A stretch of 64,000 bases of DNA from Escherichia coli (GTDB taxonomy: Bacteria > Pseudomonadota > Gammaproteobacteria > Enterobacterales > Enterobacteriaceae): assembly GCF_013122565.1 (NCBI RefSeq), contig NZ_CP053258.1. One strand, given 5' to 3'. The translations under genes were made by a program, and so were the position numbers. The notes under the pieces were generated by a model. That model saw only the letters and a list, made by a program, of their open reading frames with translations, did not search any database and was not told where the DNA came from. This document shows, piece after piece, positions 3,917 through 59,335 of the stretch; position 1 is the stretch's first letter, and the number at the start of each line of letters is the position of its first letter.

Positions 3917-5299
3917 TTATCCCACCAGCATCCAGGTCGCCGGAACTGAGGCAATTAACAGCATGCCAATCAGCACCATTTCCTGACGGTTCAGTACATT
4001 ATCATGGGTATGCGTTTTACGCGCGTACAGGAAAACCAGCAGCCCCGGTGCATACAGAACAACGGATAACAGCAAGTGCATTGGACCAGAGGCGTACAAT
4101 AACCATAAGCCATAAATGCAGGCACCGACACCTACCGCTTTATGCAGTGGACGGGTTGCGATTTTCAGCAAGAACGCGCCGACCAGGAAATAGGGCACCA
4201 GAATCATTTCTGAGGCGATGGTCAGCAACGTGTTGTAATCGGAACCGGTCAGCCAGATGAGTACCAGACAAATTTGCACGCAGATGTTAGTCAACCACAG
4301 TGAGGCGGATGGCGCAGCTTGTGCGTTCTGGCGCGCAAAAATGCGCGGGAATGCTTTATGAGTGGCGGCCAGGAACGGAACTTCTGCCGCCATGATGGTC
4401 CAGCTTAAGTACGCGCCGCAAACGGAAACGATCAAACCGGCAGCGATGATGATTTCGCCCCACGGTCCCATCATTTCCACCATCAGACCGGCCATTGACG
4501 GGTTACGAATTTCAGCCAGTTCAGGACGTGCCACCACACCCAGCGAAAGCAGCGTTACCAGCAAGTAAACGCCCAGAGCGGAGAGAACCGCCAGCAGTGT
4601 CGCTTTGCCAACATCACGTTTATTACGCGCACGCGCAGAAACAACCACGGCACCTTCCACACCAATGAAAACCCACAGGGTGATCAGCATGGTGTTTTTC
4701 ACCTGTTCCCACACGGGGACGCCAAGTGCAAGTCCGGTGAAGTCGAGCTTGAAGGTATCCAGTTTGAACATCATCATAGCCAGCACAACAAACAGACCCA
4801 GCGGCAACAATTTTGCCAGTGTCGCCACCAGGTTAATGCTGGCAGCGGTTTGCACCCCGCGCAGGATCAAAAAGTGAACAATCCACAATAAAGCCGATGC
4901 ACCGACGATCGATTGCCAGGTATTACCATCGCCAAACAGGCGCAATTCCGGCGTGTCCGTAAAAAAGCTTAACGCGGAAAAAACGATTACCAGATAGGAG
5001 ACGTTGGCGATGACTGCGCACAGCCAGTATCCCCATGCGGAACAAAAGCCGATTAGCTCGCCAAACCCTTCGCGGGCATAGGTAAAGATACCGCCGTCAA
5101 GTTCGGGACGAATGCGCGTGAGGATCAGCATGGCAAAGGCCAGTAATAAAATACCAGCGCCAGTGATACCCCAGCCGATGAGCAGTGCTGCCGGGCTGGC
5201 AACTGCCGCCATATTTTGCGGCAGACTGAAAACACCCGCGCCCAGCATTGAGCTTAATACCAGCGCGGTGAGTGCGCTCAGTCCCAGTTTCTTTTCCAT
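3917..5299 (-). CDS. ydgI: Putative arginine/ornithine antiporter (ArcD-like, APC family)
   Basis: 460 aa polytopic membrane ORF; recalled match to E. coli YdgI. Confidence 0.85.
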   Translation of the reverse strand: MEKKLGLSALTALVLSSMLGAGVFSLPQNMAAVASPAALLIGWGITGAGILLLAFAMLILTRIRPELDGGIFTYAREGFGELIGFCSAWGYWLCAVIANVSYLVIVFSALSFFTDTPELRLFGDGNTWQSIVGASALLWIVHFLILRGVQTAASINLVATLAKLLPLGLFVVLAMMMFKLDTFKLDFTGLALGVPVWEQVKNTMLITLWVFIGVEGAVVVSARARNKRDVGKATLLAVLSALGVYLLVTLLSLGVVARPELAEIRNPSMAGLMVEMMGPWGEIIIAAGLIVSVCGAYLSWTIMAAEVPFLAATHKAFPRIFARQNAQAAPSASLWLTNICVQICLVLIWLTGSDYNTLLTIASEMILVPYFLVGAFLLKIATRPLHKAVGVGACIYGLWLLYASGPMHLLLSVVLYAPGLLVFLYARKTHTHDNVLNRQEMVLIGMLLIASVPATWMLVG

Positions 5300-5484
5300 C
5301 GATATCCAGTGATTAAAACGTGATAAGAAGAATAAATATTAGGGCAAAACGCATAAAAATGGAGTTTGCCACTGAAGCGCGGGATTTTACGAAGAGATGT
5401 GTCTGCATGCAATGGTTGCGGGGAAATTTGTGACTAAAAATACGAAAGGCGGCATCAAGCCGCCTTATAGGAGTAACTGAATAG

Positions 5485-6429
5485 TTATTTATACAGATCT
5501 GCGCTGACGGTCAGGTTATTACCACGTTCCTGCCACTGGCGGGTGATGTGGTAATACTTAGCACCTTTCTTCGCGGCACGTTTCGCAACCTGATAGGAGA
5601 CTTCGGTCATGTTGCCGTAGTTGCCAGAGAATTTGATGCTGTCGAACGGGACCATCATCGCTGCGGTCGCTTTGTTCAGTTCTTCGACTTTAGTGCCATC
5701 CGGGAGCGTGACAGTGTAACGCCCGCCTTTTGATGACTGGGTTTCAAAGAAGCGACCAACTTCAGAACTTGGTGAAGCGGTAGTCGCAACACCCGGGATC
5801 TCAACTTTCTTCGCGGCTTCGCCACCGGCAGCCAGAGCTGCACGTCCTGCTTCGGAATCTGCCGGGATCACATCCGGGCTCTGGACGATACGTTTCTTAG
5901 CATCTTTTTTATAGATGAATGCAGTAATACGCTGGTTGCCGCCCTGGTTGGCATCGATTTGACGAACGATGTAGAAAGAGTAGGCACCTTTCGCTTTTGC
6001 CGCTTTGGTGATGGCATCATTGACTTCTGGCTGGCTACGATAGAAGCCCTGGACGGTGACCGTGTCAAACGGTTCAATCAGAACAGCCTGATCTTTCGGC
6101 AGTTCGACAACACCGTTAATTACGCGATTACTTGTTTCTTCTGCTTTTTCAGCATCGGCTTTATAGAGGTCAGCGACCACACGCCAGTTACCGCTGTTAC
6201 CAAAATCAGAAGTGTCGACAACATAAAAAGAGGCGGCACCTTCTTTATCTGCGCGACGAGAAACGGCTTTCACCGCTTCGCCAATAGCATTAAAACGACC
6301 GGTAACCACTACACGGTCAAAAGGTTTAACCGCTGCCGCTTGCTCCGGTGTCAGTTCTGTTGCTGCGTTAACGGAGAATGCCGTAGCAGAAAGCAGTGCC
6401 GACGCCAGGAGGGTGTTCTTAAGCTTCAT
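5485..6429 (-). CDS. ydgH: Periplasmic protein with repeated DUF1471 (YdgH/BhsA-type) domains
   Basis: 314 aa ORF with signal peptide (MKLKNTLLASALLSATAFSVNA) and three internal repeats. Confidence 0.8.
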   Translation of the reverse strand: MKLKNTLLASALLSATAFSVNAATELTPEQAAAVKPFDRVVVTGRFNAIGEAVKAVSRRADKEGAASFYVVDTSDFGNSGNWRVVADLYKADAEKAEETSNRVINGVVELPKDQAVLIEPFDTVTVQGFYRSQPEVNDAITKAAKAKGAYSFYIVRQIDANQGGNQRITAFIYKKDAKKRIVQSPDVIPADSEAGRAALAAGGEAAKKVEIPGVATTASPSSEVGRFFETQSSKGGRYTVTLPDGTKVEELNKATAAMMVPFDSIKFSGNYGNMTEVSYQVAKRAAKKGAKYYHITRQWQERGNNLTVSADLYK

Positions 6430-27204: not shown

Positions 27205-27311
27205 CATAAGCTCCTTACGCGAAGATAACTTCTTTAAGCATAGCATTTAACGTGTAAAGTACTGTATTTGCTACTATGATTGAGAATCATCTCTACTCTC
27301 TGGTGACTGAT

Positions 27312-28022
27312 GTGAAATACAAATTACTGCCATGCTTACTCGCGATATTCCTCACAGGATGTGACCGCACAGAGGTAACACTTTCATTTACCCCTGAGAT
27401 GGCCAGTTTCTCTAATGAATTCGATTTTGATCCGCTGCGTGGTCCGGTAAAAGATTTCACTCAGACATTAATGGATGAGCAAGGTGAAGTGACGAAACGT
27501 GTTTCTGGGACTTTGTCGGAAGAAGGCTGTTTTGATTCACTCGAATTACTGGATCTGGAAAATAATACCGTGGTCGCTCTGGTACTGGACGCCAATTATT
27601 ACCGTGATGCCGAGACGCTGGAGAAGAGAGTACGTTTACAGGGAAAATGCCAGCTAGCAGAATTACCTTCTGCCGGGGTGAGTTGGGAAACCGATGATAA
27701 TGGCTTCGTGATTAAAGCCAGCAGCAAACAGATGCAGATGGAATATCGCTATGATGATCAGGGGTATCCGCTGGGTAAAACCACGAAAAGTAACGACAAA
27801 ACATTATCTGTCAGCGCCACGCCATCAACGGACCCGATCAAAAAATTAGATTATACAGCGGTTACTTTACTGAATAATCAACGGGTTGGTAATGTAAAAC
27901 AGAGCTGTGAATATGACAGTCACGCCAATCCGGTGGACTGTCAGCTAATCATTGTTGATGAAGGAGTAAAACCCGCCGTCGAACGGGTTTACACCATCAA
28001 AAATACTATCGATTATTATTAA
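27312..28022 (+). CDS. ynfC: UPF0257-family lipoprotein
   Basis: ORF track 27276..28022; likely GTG start at 27312 giving VKYKLLPCLLAIFLTGC lipobox; about 236 aa. Confidence 0.75.
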   Translation: MKYKLLPCLLAIFLTGCDRTEVTLSFTPEMASFSNEFDFDPLRGPVKDFTQTLMDEQGEVTKRVSGTLSEEGCFDSLELLDLENNTVVALVLDANYYRDAETLEKRVRLQGKCQLAELPSAGVSWETDDNGFVIKASSKQMQMEYRYDDQGYPLGKTTKSNDKTLSVSATPSTDPIKKLDYTAVTLLNNQRVGNVKQSCEYDSHANPVDCQLIIVDEGVKPAVERVYTIKNTIDYY

Positions 28023-29627: not shown

Positions 29628-30842
29628 ATGAAGATCGTAAAGGCTGAAGTTTTTGTTACCTGTCCGGGGCGTAATTTCGTCACATTAAAAATCACCACTG
29701 AGGACGGTATTACGGGCCTTGGGGATGCCACCCTCAATGGACGTGAGCTTTCCGTGGCCTCTTATTTGCAGGATCACCTTTGTCCGCAGCTTATTGGTCG
29801 CGATGCGCACCGTATCGAAGATATCTGGCAGTTTTTCTATAAAGGTGCTTACTGGCGTCGCGGTCCGGTTACGATGTCGGCCATTTCAGCGGTTGATATG
29901 GCGCTGTGGGATATTAAAGCCAAAGCTGCCAACATGCCGCTTTACCAGTTACTCGGCGGCGCGTCTCGTGAAGGGGTGATGGTTTATTGCCATACCACCG
30001 GTCACAGTATTGATGAAGCTCTGGATGATTATGCCCGTCATCAGGAGCTGGGATTCAAAGCCATCCGCGTGCAGTGCGGAATCCCTGGTATGAAAACCAC
30101 CTACGGCATGTCGAAAGGTAAAGGTCTGGCTTATGAACCCGCAACCAAAGGACAGTGGCCGGAAGAGCAGCTGTGGTCGACGGAGAAATACCTCGATTTC
30201 ATGCCGAAATTGTTTGACGCGGTACGTAACAAGTTTGGTTTTAATGAACATTTGCTGCATGACATGCACCATCGCTTAACGCCTATTGAAGCGGCGCGCT
30301 TTGGTAAAAGCATTGAAGATTATCGCATGTTCTGGATGGAAGACCCGACGCCTGCGGAAAACCAGGAATGCTTCCGTCTCATTCGCCAACATACCGTCAC
30401 ACCCATCGCAGTGGGTGAAGTCTTCAACAGCATCTGGGACTGCAAACAACTGATTGAAGAGCAACTCATCGATTATATCCGCACCACGCTGACCCATGCA
30501 GGCGGAATTACCGGTATGCGCCGGATTGCCGATTTTGCTTCGTTGTATCAGGTACGTACTGGCTCACACGGTCCTTCCGATTTGTCACCAGTCTGCATGG
30601 CTGCGGCGTTGCACTTTGATCTGTGGGTCCCCAATTTCGGTGTCCAGGAATACATGGGTTATTCCGAACAAATGCTCGAAGTCTTCCCGCACAACTGGAC
30701 TTTCGATAACGGCTATATGCATCCGGGAGACAAACCGGGTCTTGGTATCGAATTCGATGAAAAGCTGGCGGCGAAATATCCCTATGAACCTGCTTATCTA
30801 CCAGTCGCACGTCTGGAAGATGGCACGCTGTGGAACTGGTAA
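29628..30842 (+). CDS. rspA: Starvation-sensing protein RspA (enolase superfamily, mannonate dehydratase-like)
   Basis: ORF track 29595..30842; canonical start [22 protein letters not shown] (ATG 29628); 404 aa. Confidence 0.9.
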
Positions 30843-30853
30843 GGAGTAAGATT

Positions 30854-31873
30854 ATGAAAAGCATATTAATTGAAAAACCGAATCAACTGGCGATTGTCGA
30901 ACGTGAAATACCCACCCCGTCAGCGGGTGAAGTACGAGTAAAAGTGAAACTTGCCGGAATTTGTGGTTCAGATAGCCATATTTACCGTGGGCATAATCCT
31001 TTTGCGAAATATCCGCGCGTCATTGGTCATGAATTCTTTGGCGTCATTGATGCGGTGGGTGAAGGTGTGGAAAGCGCCAGAGTCGGTGAACGTGTTGCTG
31101 TCGATCCGGTGGTCAGCTGTGGTCATTGCTATCCGTGCTCTATAGGTAAACCGAACGTTTGTACGACACTGGCTGTATTAGGTGTGCACGCTGACGGTGG
31201 TTTCAGTGAATATGCCGTGGTTCCGGCAAAAAATGCGTGGAAAATTCCTGAAGCAGTGGCCGATCAATATGCGGTAATGATCGAACCTTTTACCATTGCG
31301 GCTAACGTAACCGGACATGGTCAACCGACTGAAAATGATACCGTTCTGGTTTATGGTGCCGGTCCAATCGGCCTGACGATCGTTCAGGTATTAAAAGGCG
31401 TCTATAACGTTAAAAATGTGATTGTTGCCGATCGCATTGATGAACGACTGGAAAAAGCGAAAGAGAGCGGGGCAGACTGGGCGATTAATAACAGCCAGAC
31501 ACCGCTTGGCGAGATTTTCGCTGCAAAAGGCATCAAGCCGACATTAATTATCGATGCGGCTTGTCATCCTTCTATCCTGAAAGAGGCCGTAACGCTGGCT
31601 TCTCCAGCGGCACGTATTGTATTGATGGGCTTCTCCAGTGAACCGTCTGAAGTGATTCAGCAAGGAATTACCGGAAAAGAACTCTCTATTTTTTCTTCAC
31701 GCTTAAATGCAAATAAATTCCCGGTCGTTATCGACTGGTTAAGTAAAGGGTTAATTAAACCAGAAAAATTAATTACCCATACGTTTGATTTCCAGCATGT
31801 TGCTGATGCCATTAGTTTATTTGAACAGGATCAAAAACATTGCTGCAAAGTCTTACTCACTTTTTCTGAATAA
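30854..31873 (+). CDS. rspB: Zn-dependent alcohol dehydrogenase-family protein RspB
   Basis: ORF track 30830..31873; start MKSILIEKPN; GICGSDSH zinc motif; 339 aa. Confidence 0.9.
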   Translation: MKSILIEKPNQLAIVEREIPTPSAGEVRVKVKLAGICGSDSHIYRGHNPFAKYPRVIGHEFFGVIDAVGEGVESARVGERVAVDPVVSCGHCYPCSIGKPNVCTTLAVLGVHADGGFSEYAVVPAKNAWKIPEAVADQYAVMIEPFTIAANVTGHGQPTENDTVLVYGAGPIGLTIVQVLKGVYNVKNVIVADRIDERLEKAKESGADWAINNSQTPLGEIFAAKGIKPTLIIDAACHPSILKEAVTLASPAARIVLMGFSSEPSEVIQQGITGKELSIFSSRLNANKFPVVIDWLSKGLIKPEKLITHTFDFQHVADAISLFEQDQKHCCKVLLTFSE

Positions 31874-40195: not shown

Positions 40196-40449
40196 AAATA
40201 AATTAGCCTGATGGCCTGAACTACTGGGCCATTTGGGTATGGGGTTATGCTATTTGTCATCCTTTTATTTGTGATAATGCAGTGGTAATTTACAGAATTA
40301 AACACTTTTTTATCCGCTGATTTTGTTTTAAATCACAATGTTATCTCAGAGATGAATCATAACTTCGGATTTCTATGAAAATATTGACGTAATTTTGCTT
40401 TTCTCTCGTTAGAATAGCGCGCACAAGGAACTGTGAAAAAGGAGTGGCA

Positions 40450-41340
40450 ATGATCAAGAAGACAACGGAAATTGATGCCATCTTGTTAAATCTCAATAAG
40501 GCTATCGATGCCCACTACCAGTGGCTGGTGAGTATGTTTCACAGCGTGGTCGCGAGAGATGCCAGTAAGCCAGAAATAACGGATAACCATTCTTATGAAC
40601 TGTGCCAGTTTGGTCGGTGGATTGATCATCTGGGGCCACTCGATAACGATGAATTACCTTACGTTCGGCTAATGGATTCTGCCCATCAACATATGCATAA
40701 CTGTGGTCGGGAATTAATGCTGGCTATTGTTGAAAATCACTGGCAGGACGCGCATTTCGACGCTTTTCAGGAAGGGTTACTTTCTTTTACTGCGGCATTA
40801 ACCGATTACAAAATTTATTTACTGACGATCCGTAGCAATATGGATGTTTTGACGGGATTGCCGGGGCGTCGGGTTCTTGATGAATCCTTTGATCATCAGT
40901 TACGCAACGCTGAGCCTCTGAATCTTTATTTAATGTTGTTGGATATTGACCGATTTAAATTGGTTAATGATACCTACGGGCATTTAATCGGCGATGTAGT
41001 ATTACGCACCCTGGCAACTTACTTAGCCAGTTGGACGCGTGATTACGAAACGGTTTATCGCTACGGGGGCGAAGAATTTATCATTATTGTCAAAGCGGCT
41101 AATGATGAAGAAGCATGTCGTGCAGGTGTCAGAATTTGCCAGTTAGTCGATAACCATGCCATCACACATTCTGAAGGGCATATCAACATTACCGTGACAG
41201 CAGGTGTGAGTCGCGCATTTCCTGAAGAGCCTCTGGATGTGGTCATTGGAAGAGCGGACCGGGCAATGTATGAGGGTAAGCAAACCGGAAGAAATCGCTG
41301 CATGTTTATTGACGAACAAAATGTGATTAACCGAGTTTAA
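40450..41340 (+). CDS. dgcZ: Zinc-sensing diguanylate cyclase DgcZ (CZB + GGDEF)
   Basis: ORF track 40444..41340; start MIKKTTEIDAILL; RYGGEEF motif; 296 aa. Confidence 0.9.
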   Translation: MIKKTTEIDAILLNLNKAIDAHYQWLVSMFHSVVARDASKPEITDNHSYELCQFGRWIDHLGPLDNDELPYVRLMDSAHQHMHNCGRELMLAIVENHWQDAHFDAFQEGLLSFTAALTDYKIYLLTIRSNMDVLTGLPGRRVLDESFDHQLRNAEPLNLYLMLLDIDRFKLVNDTYGHLIGDVVLRTLATYLASWTRDYETVYRYGGEEFIIIVKAANDEEACRAGVRICQLVDNHAITHSEGHINITVTAGVSRAFPEEPLDVVIGRADRAMYEGKQTGRNRCMFIDEQNVINRV

Positions 41341-46079: not shown

Positions 46080-47270
46080 CTATTGCGTCTGTTCTTCGAG
46101 TGTCACTGGCCAGCGGCGGAAAATGATGATTGACCATATTAACGCGGCAAAAGCAGGCACCGCGCCCACATAACCAATCATCGACATTGACCAGTGCAGA
46201 CTTACCTGATTACCTACCAACGCACCCGCGCCGATTCCAATATTAAATATCCCGGAGAATAGCGCCATCGCGACGTCGGTGGCATCTGGTGCCAGCGCCA
46301 GCACTTTAACCTGCATACCAAGCCCGATGATCATCATCGCGATCCCCCAGAAAATACTCAGCACCCCGAGGTGTATTTCACTGTTCGCCGCAGGTAGCAG
46401 CAGTGCCAGGCACACCAGCAACAGTGCAATCGCCGTACTCACCAACCCAGACGCATACTGATTACCCAGTTTACCGAAAATCACGCTGCCAATAATGCCC
46501 GCACCACCGAGTAATAACAGTAATGCCGTGGCAAAGTTGGCGCTGAATCCCGCAATGTTTTGCACAAAAGGCTCGATATAGCTGTATGCCGTGTAATGGG
46601 CAGTGACAACCACCACAGTTAACAAATAAATGCTCATCAATGCCGGGCGGCGGAACAATAGCGGGAGGCTTTTCAATGAACCGGAATGCTCACTGGGCAG
46701 TAAGGGAAGTAACTTAATCAGGCACAAAAGGGTAATAAGCGCCCCGATACCAATCGCGAAGAAGGTCATTCGCCAACCGAAATACTGCCCCACAATGCGC
46801 CCGAGAGGTAATCCTAATACCATTGCCAGTGCTGTACCTGTGGCAATTAAACTCAATGCCTGTGCTCGCTTCCCGGCCGGAGCCATACGGATCGCCAGGG
46901 ACGCCGTAATCGACCAGAAAATCGCATGTGCAAAAGCCACACCAATGCGACTGATCACCAGAACGGTAAAGCTCCACGATAAAAACGACAGTACGTGGCT
47001 GGCAATAAACACCACAAACAGGCAGATCAGTAATTTGCGCCGTTCAACCTGGCTGGTCATTAACATAAAAGGCAATGACATTAGCGCTACTACCCATGCG
47101 TAAATGGTCAACATGATGCCGACCTGAGCGGTTTGCATGTGAAAACTTTGCGCAATGTCAGAGAGCAGGCCAACAGGGACAAATTCGGTGGTGTTGAAGA
47201 TGAAGGCGGCGACTGCCAGCGTAACGACCCGTAGCCACGCCACTTTGCGGGAAACAGTGTTTGTTGTCAT
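46080..47270 (-). CDS. sotB: MFS sugar efflux transporter SotB (YdeA)
   Basis: 396 aa 12-TM ORF. Confidence 0.88.
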
Positions 47271-47419
47271 AACAGATTATCGGGTGAGTTGCGAAAAAGT
47301 GATGAAATGATCTTAAAGCGGTTAATGATGTGAATACAATGCATTTGTGATCTGGATCGCGTTTTCCGTTTCTCTGACGCTGATTCTGTTCCGCGTCAGA
47401 GAGTTGGTAACATCACGGT

Positions 47420-48535
47420 TTAATGACGTTCAGGGAGATCTGGCGTTTTGGAGGTTGCGGGTATAGGTGGTCTGACAGGGGAGCGAGGCCTGTTTTTCAC
47501 CAGGTCTTCGTGAGTAACTTTTGGCGGTGTTTCATTTTTTACAAACAGTTTGAGGGTCCTGCGCGCCATATGTTTGATAATTTTATCATCACTTAATGAT
47601 GCTGGCATCAACACGTCATTCAAATCACTTTCATTGGGATTCATAAATTGGTGATAGTGCAATAACATATTGGCGAAAAATAAAAACAAGTCCTGAAAAT
47701 GAGGAGGTTCTTGTTCTGCTAAAAGGGATAAAAAGCAGATGCAGACTTCGGGTAGTACATGTTTGTTAGAACCTAATGAATCCATCAGGCTTTGCAATAA
47801 ATCCTCTTTTAATTCGCTGTCCGTTATGTCGAGAATGGCGGTGATCAAGTTAGGATCTTTATTGATGAACCATCTGTGAACCTCAGAGTTATTCCATAAT
47901 CGGGGGAGTATGACAAAATTACCGCGAGAGATAAAATTCAGGACAAGCAAATCAAACTGGCGTAAGTAATCTGCAGCGGTATGGTGATCCGGAGGCAGGG
48001 GGTCAATATGTGGTGTATGCGCTCTTTTGATGGGAACGCCAGGGTTGATCATTGGAAATTGTTCAATAAAGTCATTCAGAAACAGAAAGAGCACACGCTC
48101 GACGCCGGTCTGAAATACGCGCCCCATAGTGACAGGCTTTGGGTTGGGAGCGCAAAAAATATTAATTTCTCCATCATGGCGGAAATTATCTAAATAAATA
48201 GGGCTTAAATTTATTACTACCTGAAATTCAATATTTTCTTTGTGTCTTCCATTCCTGGCGGGATAAGTGAGTTTTAACTGAACCTTTTCATTGTATAGCG
48301 TGTCGTTACCCCGAAAAGAAGTCCTCTGAATATATGATAAGTTGTCAAGGTTATTAAATATCTTTTTTGTGGCTGAGTTGATGTTTAAAGACGTGCGCCA
48401 CTCTTCATCACATATTATTGTACTAAGTGCATCAATAAAATCCTTTAAAACTTCTTTTACCTGAGGTGCAATATTACGTACGGGAAAATCTTCAGGAAGA
48501 GATATGTAATTGCTGATGCTTACTGGCGTAACCAT
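47420..48535 (-). CDS. yneK: Uncharacterized protein YneK
   Basis: 371 aa ORF; AT-rich coding sequence; proline-rich C-terminus; no recognisable domain. Confidence 0.75.
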   Translation of the reverse strand: MVTPVSISNYISLPEDFPVRNIAPQVKEVLKDFIDALSTIICDEEWRTSLNINSATKKIFNNLDNLSYIQRTSFRGNDTLYNEKVQLKLTYPARNGRHKENIEFQVVINLSPIYLDNFRHDGEINIFCAPNPKPVTMGRVFQTGVERVLFLFLNDFIEQFPMINPGVPIKRAHTPHIDPLPPDHHTAADYLRQFDLLVLNFISRGNFVILPRLWNNSEVHRWFINKDPNLITAILDITDSELKEDLLQSLMDSLGSNKHVLPEVCICFLSLLAEQEPPHFQDLFLFFANMLLHYHQFMNPNESDLNDVLMPASLSDDKIIKHMARRTLKLFVKNETPPKVTHEDLVKNRPRSPVRPPIPATSKTPDLPERH

Positions 48536-48612
48536 ATTTGCCCCATATAGTCATAAGTCATCGGAACATCACTATATAGAGCATATTAGCCGCAAGAACT
48601 ATCAAAAATAGC

Positions 48613-49494
48613 TCATTGGTAACCCTGTCTTGCCGAGTCAGGCACATCCAGCAGTTGAATAAATGCCTCTAGCGGACGCGTTTTCGCACCACGACGCCAG
48701 ACCAGCCAGGTTGTTAACCAACGCCATTGCTCAGCTAACGGCCACGCTTCAACCTGGTGATGCCCCGGCATACTTTCCAGCATAGAGCGCGGAATAAGCG
48801 CAATGCCTGCTCCTGCGACTACACAGGCCAACATTCCGTGATAAGACTCCATCTCATGGATAGTTCCCGGAGCGGCACCGTCAGCATGAAACCAGCTCTC
48901 GAAGTGGCGACGATACGAACAATTGGCGCGGAAGGCATAAATGTTACTGCCATTCACCTGACTGGCACGGGTTACTGGCGCATGTCCTTGTGGCGTGACA
49001 ATCATCAGCTCCTCGCGGTATACCGGTATCCCGTCAATGGCGGTATGGTTAATGGGCCCATCAATAAACGCCGCATTCAGTTTTCCCTCCAGCACCCCTT
49101 CCAGCATAGTGCCGGAAGGGCCGGTGGAAAGTGAAAACTGAATTTTGGGATAACGACGGTTGAATTCCGCCAGTGTGGCCGGAATGCGAACTGCTGCGGT
49201 GCTTTCCAGCGAACCTAGAGAAAATAAACCTTGCGGCTCATCGCCAGCGACAACGCTCCGCGCTTCATCCACTAACGCGAGAATTTGTTGGCTATAGCGT
49301 AAAAAGTTATGCCCGGCAGGAGAGAGACGTAAACGCTGATTCTCGCGAATAAACAGATCTACCCCCAGTTCTGTTTCCAGCTGGCGTAGACGGGTAGTGA
49401 GATTCGACGGCACGCGATGCACTATTGCTGCAGCCTGCGTAATGCTGCCAGCTTCGGCAACCGCGTTGAACATCTCCAGTTGGGTCAGATCCAT
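48613..49494 (-). CDS. yneJ: LysR-family transcriptional regulator
   Basis: 293 aa; N-terminal HTH; divergent from sad. Confidence 0.85.
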
Positions 49495-49594
49495 AATATT
49501 CTCGATTCGTGAATAAGTGGCTTAATATTATTCATTTTAAAGCAAGAGTAAATCTGCGTATCTTCATACCATGACTCATAAAGGAGATACCCCG

Positions 49595-50983
49595 ATGACC
49601 ATTACTCCGGCAACTCATGCAATTTCGATAAATCCTGCCACGGGTGAACAACTTTCTGTGTTGCCGTGGGCTGGCGCTGATGATATCGAAAACGCACTTC
49701 AGCTGGCGGCAGCAGGTTTTCGTGACTGGCACGAGACAAATATAGATTATCGTGCTGAAAAACTGCGTGATATCGGTAAGGCTCTGCGCGCCCGTAGCGA
49801 AGAAATGGCGCAAATGATCACCCGCGAAATGGGCAAACCAATCAACCAGGCGCGCGCTGAAGTGGCGAAATCGGCGAATTTGTGTGACTGGTATGCAGAA
49901 CATGGTCCGGCAATGCTGAAGGCGGAACCTACGCTGGTGGAAAATCAGCAGGCGGTTATTGAGTATCGACCGTTGGGGACGATTCTGGCGATTATGCCGT
50001 GGAATTTTCCGTTATGGCAGGTGATGCGTGGCGCTGTTCCCATCATTCTTGCAGGTAACGGCTACTTACTTAAACATGCGCCGAATGTGATGGGCTGTGC
50101 ACAGCTCATTGCCCAGGTGTTTAAAGATGCGGGAATCCCACAAGGCGTATATGGCTGGCTGAATGCCGACAATGACGGTGTCACTCAGATGATTAAAGAC
50201 TCGCGCATTGCTGCTATCACGGTGACCGGAAGTGTTCGTGCTGGAGCGGCTATTGGCGCACAGGCTGGAGCGGCACTGAAAAAATGCGTACTGGAACTGG
50301 GCGGTTCGGATCCGTTTATTGTGCTTAACGATGCCGATCTGGAACTGGCGGTGAAAGCGGCGGTAGCCGGACGTTATCAGAATACCGGGCAGGTTTGTGC
50401 AGCGGCAAAACGCTTTATTATCGAAGAGGGAATTGCTTCGGCATTTACCGAACGTTTTGTGGCAGCTGCGGCAGCCTTGAAAATGGGCGATCCCCGTGAC
50501 GAAGAGAACGCTCTCGGACCAATGGCTCGTTTCGATTTACGTGATGAGCTGCATCATCAGGTGGAGAAAACCCTGGCGCAGGGTGCGCGTTTGTTACTGG
50601 GCGGGGAAAAGATGGCTGGGGCAGGTAACTACTATCCGCCAACGGTTCTGGCGAATGTTACCCCAGAAATGACCGCGTTTCGGGAAGAAATGTTTGGCCC
50701 CGTTGCGGCAATCACCATTGCGAAAGATGCAGAACATGCACTGGAACTGGCTAATGATAGTGAGTTCGGCCTTTCAGCGACCATTTTTACCACCGACGAA
50801 ACACAGGCCAGACAGATGGCGGCACGTCTGGAATGCGGTGGGGTGTTTATCAATGGTTATTGTGCCAGCGACGCGCGAGTGGCCTTTGGTGGCGTGAAAA
50901 AGAGTGGCTTTGGTCGTGAGCTTTCCCATTTCGGCTTACACGAATTCTGTAATATCCAGACGGTGTGGAAAGACCGGATCTGA
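49595..50983 (+). CDS. sad: NAD-dependent succinate-semialdehyde dehydrogenase Sad (YneI)
   Basis: ORF track 49571..50983; start [19 protein letters not shown] (AAGGAGA RBS); 462 aa. Confidence 0.9.
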
Positions 50984-57499: not shown

Positions 57500-59240
57500 C
57501 ATCCTCCACGCCCTGAATGACGAGGATCCTGCTACGTTCAGGCTGTCGCCTGAATCATTTCGGTGGGTTCCTGCTTCAACGGGCGGCCTGACTGCACCAT
57601 CCCTCCACAGGCAAGAACGGCGTACCCCGCCGCTAAAATGTTACGAGCGCCGTTTACATCGGCGTTCGCTGTATATCCACATACCTGGCATCTGAATTTA
57701 CTTTGTGACAGGCGATTTTCTTTCGTTGTATGACCACAGCACGCGCAACGCTGGCTTGTGTACGCTGGCGGAACAGCAAGCACCTGACCGCCACACCAGA
57801 GCTGCTTGTACTCAAGCTGGCGACGCATTTCATACCAGCCCTGATCCAGTATCGAACGGTTTAAACCTGATTTTGCCCGGACATTGCGCCCCGGCTGGCT
57901 GACCGTACCCGCTGCTGACTTTGACATGTTGCTGACCTTCAAATCCTCAATGACTATCATTGCGTGGTTTTTGCTGACGGTCGTTGTGACTTTGTGAAGG
58001 TAGTCCCTGCGGATATTTGCGATACGGGAATGCAGTCGCTGTATTTTGCGTTTCTGCTTCTGCCAGTTGTTGCTGAATTTGACCTTGCGGCTTAACTGTC
58101 GCTGAAGTCTCGCCAGCTTCTTCTGGTTTTTCTGAAAACTGTTTACAGGCTCAAAGACTGTGCCATCTGACAGCGTGGCGAGTTTAGCCACGCCAGCATC
58201 CAGCCCGATCATTGATGCTGAAGGGTGAACCGGAGTGGATACTTCACTTTCTGTCTGAATACTGATGTGCCACTTACCGCAGGACTGGCTGACCGTGACA
58301 TTTTTCACAACACCCGTGACCTGACGGCTATTCCGGTAGCGCATCCAGCCCAGTTTCGGCAGAAAAATACGGCTGTTTTCCTGATCGAGCTTAACGCCCT
58401 GCGGGTAGCGGAATGCATCATTCTGTCCCCGCTTTTTGAATCGGGGAAAAGCAGCCCGCTTCCGGAAGAAGTTTTTGTAAGCCCACTCAAGGTCTTTCAG
58501 TGACTGTTGCAATGGCTGTGACGGGGCATCTTTAAGCCATTGCGTTTCAGTGGCATTTTTCCACTCAACCAGCCAGGAAGCCATTTTCCCGTAAGGGATG
58601 TATTTATTACCGGCCTCATGATTCTCATTCTGACGTGCCAGAGCACGATTGAAAACGAAACGACATGCGCCTGCGAAGCGCCTCATTTCACGCTCCTGTT
58701 GACCACCGGGTCTTAACTGGAATTTAAATGCCTGTAGTCGTTTCACAGGTCAAATGATATTTTGGTCTGTGAAAAAAGAAACCGATATCCGGCGTGGAAG
58801 GCATTGTGTTTTCCTGAAGCATGTTCACATGGTCTTTGTCACCAAATACCGACGCCAGATTTTTGACCATGACGCGACAGAAAAACTACGCACTTACTTT
58901 TCAAATGTATGTGCTGATTTTGAAGCTGAACTGGTTGAAATGGATGGCGAACCAGATCACGTCCATTTGTTAATTAACTATCCTCCCAAACTGGCGATAT
59001 CCAGTCTGGTAAACAGCCTCAAAAGCGTATCGGGTAGGTTACTGCGACGAGATCGACCAGATATTGCAGCCAGGTATTACTACAAAGGCGTTTTGTGGAG
59101 TCCTGGCTATTTTGCCAGTAGCTGCGGAGGTACGCCAATATCCGTCATCCGCCAATACATTGAACAACAGCAAACACCTGGTCAGGTGGAAAACCACACC
59201 TTATATCCCCGCCCTGAAGGACGGGGTTTTACGGCGCACC
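57500..59240. mobile_element. IS200/IS605-family insertion sequence (IS609-like), about 1.7 kb, with tnpA and tnpB
   Basis: TnpB and Y1 TnpA ORFs fill the gap between tam and lsrG; similar imperfect palindromes near both ends (57506-57525 and 59207-59226). Ends approximate. Confidence 0.6.
57538..58746 (-). CDS. tnpB: TnpB (IS200/IS605 OrfB; RuvC-like RNA-guided endonuclease family)
   Basis: 402 aa, GTG start; RuvC-I GLDAG, RuvC-II IEDL, RuvC-III NADVNGA and CxxC...CxxC zinc finger present; starts [18 protein letters not shown] as recalled for E. coli InsQ. Confidence 0.9.
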
Positions 59241-59335
59241 GGATAAATTCGCCTCACGGCATCAACCCATTGAACAGACGCTTTTTACGCGGCCCGGTCA
59301 TTAAAGATTCCAGTTTCGCGACACAGGTTTTGTAG
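58754..59335 (+). CDS. tnpA: IS200-type Y1 (HuH) transposase TnpA; ORF as read extends past the expected C-terminus
   Basis: HVHLL HuH motif and conserved YY/GYF tyrosines; canonical proteins are about 150 aa, so the true end is probably near 59210-59240; the rest is read-through overlapping lsrG. Confidence 0.8.

Follow-up and report, generated by a model that had tools for sequence, protein, structure and literature searches.

yneK, an AT-rich gene of Escherichia coli and Escherichia albertii that was probably acquired by insertion at the 3' end of ptrR and is a target of H-NS silencing in K-12

Results

Identity of the gene and layout of the locus. This study concerns yneK, an AT-rich gene in a 64,000-nucleotide stretch of Escherichia coli DNA (NCBI RefSeq assembly GCF_013122565.1, contig NZ_CP053258.1), the whole of which is referred to below as the window. 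A preliminary description of the window had placed a 371-amino-acid (aa) open reading frame (ORF), named yneK, between sotB and yneJ, and our analysis confirmed it at positions 47420 to 48535, on the minus strand and with an ATG start codon. The neighboring genes are sotB (also called ydeA; 46080-47270, minus strand) and yneJ (also called ptrR; 48613-49494, minus strand), and the three genes are co-directional. The features of the locus discussed below are as follows.

47359-48645, minus strand: lineage-specific AT-rich segment of ~1.28 kb (GC content, 0.36 to 0.40), delimited by alignments of the ptrR-sotB junction; the right border is placed to within ~11 bp (47359-47370)
48613-48645, minus strand: last 10 codons and stop codon of ptrR, assigned to the inserted segment by the junction alignments
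48536-48612, minus strand: ptrR-yneK spacer of 77 bp (GC content, 0.36), with a GGGG Shine-Dalgarno-like run at 48541-48544, from the sequence and its GC content
47420-48535, minus strand: yneK coding sequence, encoding a protein of 371 aa, 42.9 kDa and pI ~6.2; supported by the ORF list, by NCBIfam NF033404, by a RefSeq yneK annotation at the same position, and by the ratio of nonsynonymous to synonymous substitution rates (dN/dS)
48150-48535, minus strand: most AT-rich portion of yneK, its 5' third (codons 1-128; GC content, 0.33 to 0.37), from the composition profile
47891-48085, minus strand: constrained block, codons 151-215 (LFLNDFIEQFP...HTPH...AADYLRQFDLLVLNFISRGNFVILPRLWN), from identity and dN/dS against E. 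albertii
47423-47491, minus strand: proline-rich tail RPRSPVRPPIPATSKTPDLPERH, codons 349-371, from the translation, conservation and the predicted local distance difference test score (pLDDT)
47372-47401, minus strand: stem-loop CTCTGACGC-N12-GCGTCAGAG, 19 nucleotides (nt) past the yneK stop codon (RNA fold, -24.3 kcal/mol; z, -4.4)

The ORF is an already known, annotated gene. Residues 1-371 match positions 1-371 of the NCBIfam "YneK" equivalog model NF033404 with 807.4 bits (curated cutoff, 40; E value, 1.3e-243), and RefSeq labels the same locus yneK in thousands of E. coli genomes. The counterpart in E. coli K-12 MG1655 is b1527 (JW1520; UniProt P76150), located at 1,615,763-1,616,878 between ptrR and ydeA. 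It is the same gene, with the same length of 371 aa, the same synteny and a GC content of 0.40, and the window protein differs from it by nine amino acid substitutions (identity, 97.6% in amino acids and 98.6% in nucleotides). The order and strand of ptrR, yneK and ydeA are the same in the window, K-12, strain 08-00022 and E. albertii. The exact window protein is on record as WP_171459366.1, from the chromosome of another E. coli strain. Papers on "yneK" of Bacillus subtilis concern an unrelated gene of the same name and were set aside.

Base composition and codon usage of yneK. A GC content visibly lower than that of the neighbors had been noted earlier, and the measurements bear this out. 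yneK has a GC content of 0.401, with the same value of 0.401 at third codon positions (GC3), whereas the whole window has 0.4945, the adjacent sotB, ptrR, sad, glsB, marC and marR have 0.49 to 0.54, and the more distant marA has 0.456. Among the 48 window ORFs of at least 150 aa, yneK ranks lowest (0.401 versus 0.505 ± 0.029; z, -4.2; GC3 z, -2.7). A 300-bp stretch within the gene (48150-48449) has a GC content of 0.33, and A/T runs of at least 6 nt occur at 22.4 per kb, compared with 7 to 10 per kb in neighboring genes. Synonymous codon usage likewise distinguishes yneK from the genes that flank it; it is the most deviant of 47 ORFs examined (scaled chi-square, 0.413 versus 0.171 ± 0.066).

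Evidence for an insertion between ptrR and sotB. We collected loci anchored on PtrR from 80 Enterobacteriaceae species and located PtrR, YneK, SotB, MarC, MarR and Sad in each. YneK was found in E. coli (including Shigella) and E. albertii only. The E. albertii protein is 68% identical to that of the window, and the flanking proteins are 91 to 99% identical. ptrR lies directly before sotB in four Escherichia representatives (MOD1-EC7003, E1V33, E. whittamii and SCPM-O-B-8794) and also in Salmonella enterica subsp. arizonae and subsp. diarizonae, many Citrobacter species and Trabulsiella. Without yneK, the gap between ptrR (extended to its stop codon) and sotB measures 88 to 204 bp, and with yneK, 1340 to 1352 bp.

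Homology to the yneK-less genomes stops after codon ~283 of ptrR (48645) and restarts at GATCCAGATCAC (47347-47358), in the region upstream of sotB. The ~1.28 kb in between comprises the last 10 codons and stop codon of ptrR, the 77-bp spacer, yneK, and the stem-loop past its stop codon. The 33 nt at the 3' end of ptrR could not be aligned with three yneK-less Escherichia loci (L009 to L011), Salmonella or Citrobacter, whereas upstream ptrR aligns throughout, and the C terminus of PtrR in E. coli and E. albertii is wholly unlike that of yneK-less Escherichia, Salmonella and Citrobacter (loci L009 to L011, L047 and L017). As the last 10 codons of ptrR come from the insert, the acquisition appears to have rewritten the tail of a resident LysR regulator. 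The borders of the insert and the stem-loop are the same in E. albertii and E. coli, which points to a single insertion event. Between these two species, the dS of yneK is 1.18, within the range of 0.48 to 1.34 found for the flanking genes, as expected if yneK has been inherited along with its flanks since the two species diverged. Judged from these alignments, the yneK segment would have been inserted in the ancestor common to E. coli and E. albertii, before their split. The horizontal acquisition suggested by the preliminary description is thus supported by an AT-rich segment present in these two species at a junction where ptrR and sotB adjoin in four other Escherichia species, Salmonella, Citrobacter and Trabulsiella.

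Escherichia sp. MOD1-EC7003 (locus L008) retains merely the first 9 nt of the segment, and the 64-nt filler found there could not be related to the insert. The segment is bordered by an imperfect direct repeat of 11 bp (AACTGCTGGAT on the left and AACTCTCTGAC on the right; 8 of 11 positions match). When the right flank (the 61 nt after yneK) was compared with the ancestral 3' end of ptrR, the similarity was matched by 94 to 122 of 2000 shuffles for L009 and L010, and no similarity was found to the ptrR end of L011 (1328 of 2000 shuffles). As neither the repeat nor this similarity is statistically secure, we claim no target-site duplication.

The ptrR-sotB junction is variable across Enterobacteriaceae. 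Klebsiella, Enterobacter, Yokenella, Kluyvera, Lelliottia and Citrobacter sedlakii (loci L060, L052, L049, L016, L041, L061 and L086) carry 1 to 4.7 kb of genes with normal GC content between ptrR and sotB. Among them are genes for a GNAT acetyltransferase, a protein resembling lactate/malate dehydrogenase and one or two members of the PhzF family; the C. sedlakii interval holds a major facilitator superfamily (MFS) transporter, a hydrolase and a LysR regulator. The GNAT, dehydrogenase-like and PhzF-family genes, which are ordinary and GC-rich, occupy the interval in Enterobacter, Klebsiella, Kluyvera and Kosakonia, among others. Nearby, in the marR-marC intergenic region of E. coli 08-00022 (L002, 1405-1999), a RelE/ParE toxin and a helix-turn-helix (HTH) antitoxin are inserted; both are absent from the window and from K-12.

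Searches for relatives and known domains. The preliminary description had called yneK an orphan without a motif of a known family, and this assessment holds. The Pfam search with the window protein gave no match at an E value of ≤10, the only family model to recognize YneK is the gene-specific NF033404, and no clear domain assignment was obtained from profile searches. When all six family members were searched at the same threshold, DUF1140 alone was returned, for one member (E value, 0.045), and was treated as noise. The defense models of PADLOC-DB 2.0 gave 0 families at an E value of ≤10, PHROGs gave four matches with E values of 0.07 or worse that we judged to be noise, and the best E value against PDB sequences, with the single protein and with a profile, was 0.68. 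When 1.84 billion representative proteins were searched exhaustively with phmmer, 47 matches were obtained, all with at least 55% identity. Those with 55 to 67% identity were considered as distant relatives and rejected, because, once aligned, they proved to be pieces of yneK or copies of it with frameshifts or errors. Searching 5.8 billion clusters with a profile (E value, ≤1) recovered nothing beyond the YneK family of Escherichia and Shigella. A tblastn search of phages and plasmids found no copy of yneK, the matches being mislabeled E. coli chromosomes, and Rfam identified no RNA family over 46900-49700.

In some assemblies, YneK is fused to PtrR, with LysR domains followed by YneK (P0002, of 534 aa, P0006 and P0019), and one assembly carries a fusion of a MarR domain with YneK (P0007, 411 aa). 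These fusions presumably arose through loss of the ptrR stop codon, deletions or assembly errors. A contig labeled "MAG: Caldithrix sp." (SMXE01000224.1; L007), MAG denoting a metagenome-assembled genome, carries a sad-ptrR-yneK-sotB-marC-marR block with 98 to 100% protein identity to E. coli and is almost certainly E. coli contamination of the bin. Two other entries, "Chryseobacterium sp. 18061" (L045) and a "Raoultella" MAG (L024), look like mislabeled Enterobacteriaceae or Citrobacter.

Selection, loss and alleles of yneK. Between E. coli and E. albertii, the dN of yneK is 0.199, compared with 0.006 to 0.049 for its neighbors, that is, 4 to 30 times higher. The dN/dS ratio is 0.17 against E. 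albertii and 0.16 against a second E. coli allele described below (allele 2), lies between 0.15 and 0.20 in every deep comparison, and reaches 0.27 to 0.34 among close strains. Constraint is strongest in residues 151-215, which are 86% identical to E. albertii, compared with 68% for the whole protein, and have a dN/dS of 0.067, compared with 0.16 to 0.22 in the other segments. In the C-terminal tail, 14 of 23 positions are invariant among orthologs that are 68% identical overall. The probability that 371 codons of the composition of yneK remain open by chance is ~2e-10. Our results therefore indicate, from comparison of sequences, a real gene under relaxed purifying selection, because the dN/dS is low, the core and the tail are conserved, and a frame of this length is not expected by chance.

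At the same time, yneK is dispensable. Of 5426 complete E. coli genomes, only 4232 have at least 80% of the locus, and ~22% have lost it by deletion. Internal deletions have left a 338-bp remnant in CFT073 and in the rest of the partial matches listed; we take these genomes to belong to phylogroup B2. Shigella sonnei and Shigella flexneri have a truncated yneK.

Allele 2 has 84% amino acid identity and occurs, at ≥99% nucleotide identity, in 19 of the 5426 complete genomes (L087, E. coli 2017-02-2CC, 5001-6116; also L006). Its dS peaks at yneK (0.55) and is 0.35 for ptrR, 0.20 for sotB, 0.18 for sad, 0.13 for marC and 0.08 for glsB. Allele 2 is either a haplotype of long standing or the product of introgression, and its right-flank variant recurs in the CFT073 remnant.

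Protein features and predicted structure. No signal peptide or transmembrane segment is evident in YneK, a predicted soluble, cytoplasmic protein of 42.9 kDa, and no catalytic motif was found. The proline-rich C-terminal tail mentioned in the earlier description is present at residues 349-371, where 7 of 23 residues are prolines. It carries PRSPVR (PxxPxR) together with SP/TP dipeptides, has a pLDDT of ~35, and is probably disordered.

AlphaFold2 was run with an alignment of 6 sequences with 68 to 98% identity, all that was available. The full-length model had a mean pLDDT of 43.5 and a predicted template modeling score (pTM) of 0.34, and a second run on residues 130-345 had a pLDDT of 47.9. 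As the models are poor (pLDDT, 44 to 48), no fold can be assigned to YneK. A Foldseek search of the models against PDB and viral models gave no match at an E value of ≤1e-3. The pattern of secondary structure agrees between the two runs and predicts an N-terminal alpha/beta region (residues ~1-130), an all-helical region (~136-333) that includes the core at 151-215, and the conserved proline-rich tail. Helical-repeat scaffolds of the HEAT, TOG or LWY type and, for the N-terminal ~160 aa, StART/SRPBCC helix-grip domains are structural look-alikes of YneK only, to be taken as a lead and not as membership; YneK differs from them in that Pfam is empty at an E value of ≤10, the Foldseek TM score is ~0.13, and the pLDDT is <50 in the regions concerned.

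H-NS binding and transcription of yneK. The preliminary description had proposed probable silencing by H-NS, and published data on the K-12 ortholog, a strain other than that of the window, agree with this. In the chromatin immunoprecipitation with microarray hybridization (ChIP-chip) data of Myers et al. 2013 (PMC3688515, Table S3), H-NS occupies a region at 1,613,065-1,615,313 under anaerobic conditions and a 15-kb region at 1,612,526-1,627,806 under aerobic conditions. We mapped the coordinates of that study onto the current K-12 sequence via its sigma-70 peaks at sad/yneJ (1,612,790) and marC/marR (1,617,113), which gave an offset of 1,914 to 2,006 bp. With any offset in this range, yneK lies wholly within the H-NS region 1,613,065-1,615,313, which also takes in two-thirds of ptrR, at its 3' end, and ~260 bp at the start of ydeA. 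In the edgeR comparison of the wild type with a Δhns-stpA strain by Srinivasan et al. (PMC4288151), b1527 has a log fold change (logFC) of -5.65 (log counts per million, 6.3; P, 1.3e-67), negative values denoting lower RNA in the wild type. In the same comparison, ptrR has a logFC of -2.12, and ydeA and sad are barely changed. In K-12, yneK is thus bound by H-NS and repressed ~50-fold by H-NS/StpA. We also considered the H-NS high-affinity motif TCGATAAATT, for which 6 of 93 two-mismatch matches lie in yneK, and discarded it, as the matches reflect AT-richness only.

Scanning of the 77-bp spacer against consensus patterns found no consensus sigma-70 promoter and no terminator. Near yneK, PMC3688515 lists sigma-70 peaks at the promoter of sad/ptrR and a short way upstream of ydeA, and none at the ptrR-yneK spacer. 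Its Table S4 gives a ChIP-chip region of integration host factor (IHF) at 1,613,921-1,614,708 (U00096.2), inside K-12 yneK. Genomic SELEX (gSELEX) in vitro with K-12 DNA has located RNA polymerase (RNAP)/NtrC (sigma-54), sigma-38 and a further holoenzyme with a minor sigma factor to the ptrR-yneK spacer or its vicinity (PMC8743547 and PMC5493296). The IHF region and the binding of NtrC/sigma-54, sigma-38 and the minor sigma factor are possible handles for counter-silencing. As the spacer has neither a terminator after ptrR nor a good sigma-70 promoter, yneK may be transcribed by polymerase that reads through from ptrR or that starts at weak or alternative-sigma promoters.

Downstream of yneK, the 8- to 9-bp stem of the stem-loop (CTCTGACG/CGTCAGAG) is kept among E. 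coli, allele 2, the CFT073 remnant and E. albertii, while the loop varies. A terminator scan at this position was negative, and as no U-tract follows the stem, it is not a canonical intrinsic terminator. Candidate roles are an RNA 3'-end stabilizer, a Rho-related element or a recombination scar.

Discussion

The results taken together make it likely that yneK is a genuine, Escherichia-restricted gene, brought in by an old AT-rich insertion at the 3' end of ptrR and silenced by H-NS. This reading builds on the identity of the gene, its composition, the insertion borders, the distribution, the signature of selection, and the binding and repression by H-NS in K-12; its route of transcription and the domain layout and mode of action of YneK are what we infer beyond these. 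In the sequence of events that we envisage, a ~1.28-kb AT-rich segment would have entered the 3' end of ptrR, just upstream of the promoter region of sotB/ydeA. Because the segment is AT-rich, H-NS together with StpA would coat it as a filament that, in K-12, covers the 3' two-thirds of ptrR and runs on through yneK to end ~260 bp into ydeA. The filament would hold yneK RNA ~50-fold lower, and this repression would leave the gene essentially silent in laboratory culture. For the DNA, this scheme is well supported. Expression would then probably depend on ptrR read-through or on the weak or alternative-sigma promoters, once some signal relieves H-NS. As to the product, we tentatively propose that YneK may be a non-enzymatic protein that binds one or several partner proteins through its helical region and tail motif and confers a conditional, niche-specific benefit, although we do not regard this as the probable answer. 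A benefit of this kind would account for purifying selection where the gene is present together with its repeated loss (in phylogroup B2, Shigella and other Escherichia species).

Several observations weigh against this reading. No transposase, integrase or tRNA was found at the borders of the segment, and a homolog that could mark a donor is absent from phages, plasmids and other genera; mobility machinery and an identifiable donor are common, but not obligatory, in xenogeneically silenced acquired genes. The flanking repeat and the likeness of the right flank to the ancestral end of ptrR are only marginal (94 of 2000 shuffles). The absence of yneK from four intermediate Escherichia species would call for several clean losses or for a later transfer between lineages. 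The evidence for H-NS stems from the K-12 ortholog and not from the window strain, and spurious or antisense transcripts arising within AT-rich DNA might account for part of the ~50-fold signal. Finally, Hu et al. 2009 recorded neither an abundance nor an interaction for YneK; they list yneK as an orphan and non-essential gene with a codon adaptation index (CAI) of 0.329 and no abundance value, linked to ydeA only, by genomic context.

Two alternatives dispute that yneK is a functional, acquired gene. It could be a functionless relic, a foreign ORF that has been silenced ever since it arrived, is undergoing decay, and persists in many strains through drift alone. This would fit a gene that is silent in culture, non-essential and without a measured abundance, that ~22% of complete genomes have lost and that Shigella carries in truncated form, whose dN is 4 to 30 times that of its neighbors, and for which structure prediction fails. 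We nevertheless regard it as unlikely, since dN/dS stays at 0.15 to 0.20 over a dS of >1, E. coli and E. albertii both keep the full 371-codon frame, a 65-residue block evolves at a dN/dS of 0.067, and the chance of such a frame staying open without selection is ~2e-10. That the ORF was born de novo, in place, from noncoding DNA between ptrR and sotB was already disfavored, and we give it almost no credence: the ancestral gap has just ~90 to 200 bp, none of which can be aligned with yneK, and the 1.28 kb represents additional, sharply bordered DNA. The failure of phmmer among 1.84 billion proteins and of profile searches to find a homolog, and the low AlphaFold2 confidence, are what such an origin would predict.

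Other alternatives accept the acquisition and assign YneK a more specific role. One is a single-gene defense, or counter-defense, against phages or mobile elements, housed in a variable chromosomal slot. yneK is indeed AT-rich and variably present, it has a diverged allele (84% amino acid identity) with a dS peak on the gene itself (0.55 versus 0.08 to 0.35 in the flanks), the cargo of the ptrR-sotB junction differs by genus, and a CRISPR-transposase (CAST) screen gave it a weak, unvalidated score (PMC12757027). However, PADLOC returned no match, there is no nuclease, NTPase or other effector domain, no homologs occur in phages or plasmids, the cargo of the other genera consists of ordinary metabolic genes with normal GC content, and the CAST effect was not significant on retest (PMC12757027), so that this role seems highly improbable to us. 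Another is that YneK is secreted and targets the host, for example as a cryptic substrate of a type III secretion system (T3SS; ETT2, E. coli type III secretion system 2, or LEE, the locus of enterocyte effacement), its PxxPxR and SP/TP motifs mimicking ligands of eukaryotic SH3 domains and kinases. The N-terminal composition would be compatible with a secretion signal; phmmer and profile searches revealed no homology to type III effectors and no linkage to T3SS or chaperone genes, the neighbors being ptrR, ydeA and the mar genes, and we rate this role, too, as very unlikely. More broadly, YneK may represent a novel protein family and fold, confined to E. coli and E. albertii and directed at a host or partner; it could, for example, be an effector or adaptor, cryptic and secreted, that acts through its PxxPxR/SP-TP tail and that H-NS holds silent until an in-host signal. 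This is a long shot. If true, the rare, diverged allele 2 would reflect balancing or diversifying selection on that interaction.

The likely reading of yneK as an old, silenced acquisition places it among the AT-rich acquired genes silenced by H-NS/StpA. It shares with them a GC content ~10 points under that of the genome, an insertion relative to sister taxa, and, in K-12, an extended H-NS ChIP region together with strong derepression in Δhns-stpA. It differs from such islands in being a single-gene islet without an integrase, tRNA, insertion sequence (IS) element or phage context, in being older than most, as it is common to E. albertii at a dS of ~1.2, and in a GC content (0.36 to 0.40) that has not drifted toward that of the host despite its age. 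That it overwrote the 3' end of ptrR is also unusual for a textbook xenogeneically silenced gene. In other respects yneK is ordinary but well documented and behaves as such textbook genes do.

yneK belongs to the E. coli genes to which no function has yet been assigned, and it is treated as uncharacterized throughout the literature that we examined. It was picked together with nearby marB in a pangenome association with bovine adherence, where specificity was low and the authors suspect linkage. The CRISPR-transposase host-factor screen cited above included it as a weak, unvalidated candidate, and its knockout was not significant on retest. Butanol-tolerant lineages delete yneK-ydeA-marC, the effect being attributed to marC, and a list of MazF codon bias includes yneK and is silent on its function. 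What we add is a clean, datable, single-gene foreign insertion that would predate the split of E. coli and E. albertii and have rewritten the end of ptrR. Still AT-rich, silenced by H-NS, and under purifying selection yet repeatedly lost, yneK is a handy model for the persistence of silenced foreign genes. As it stands, this changes nothing in known biology; the novelty that remains lies in the fold and function of YneK, a concrete target for function discovery.

Additional observations on the window. Among the 5426 complete RefSeq E. coli genomes, the closest match has 99.0% identity at the yneK locus and 98.6% over window positions 24000-44400, which indicates that the lineage of the window is not closely represented among them. 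Other window ORFs also have a lowish GC content or odd codon usage, namely, those at 30830-31873 (GC3, 0.385), 27276-28022 (GC content, 0.439), 40444-41340 (GC content, 0.446) and 58754-59335, whose codon deviation of 0.408 is almost that of yneK.

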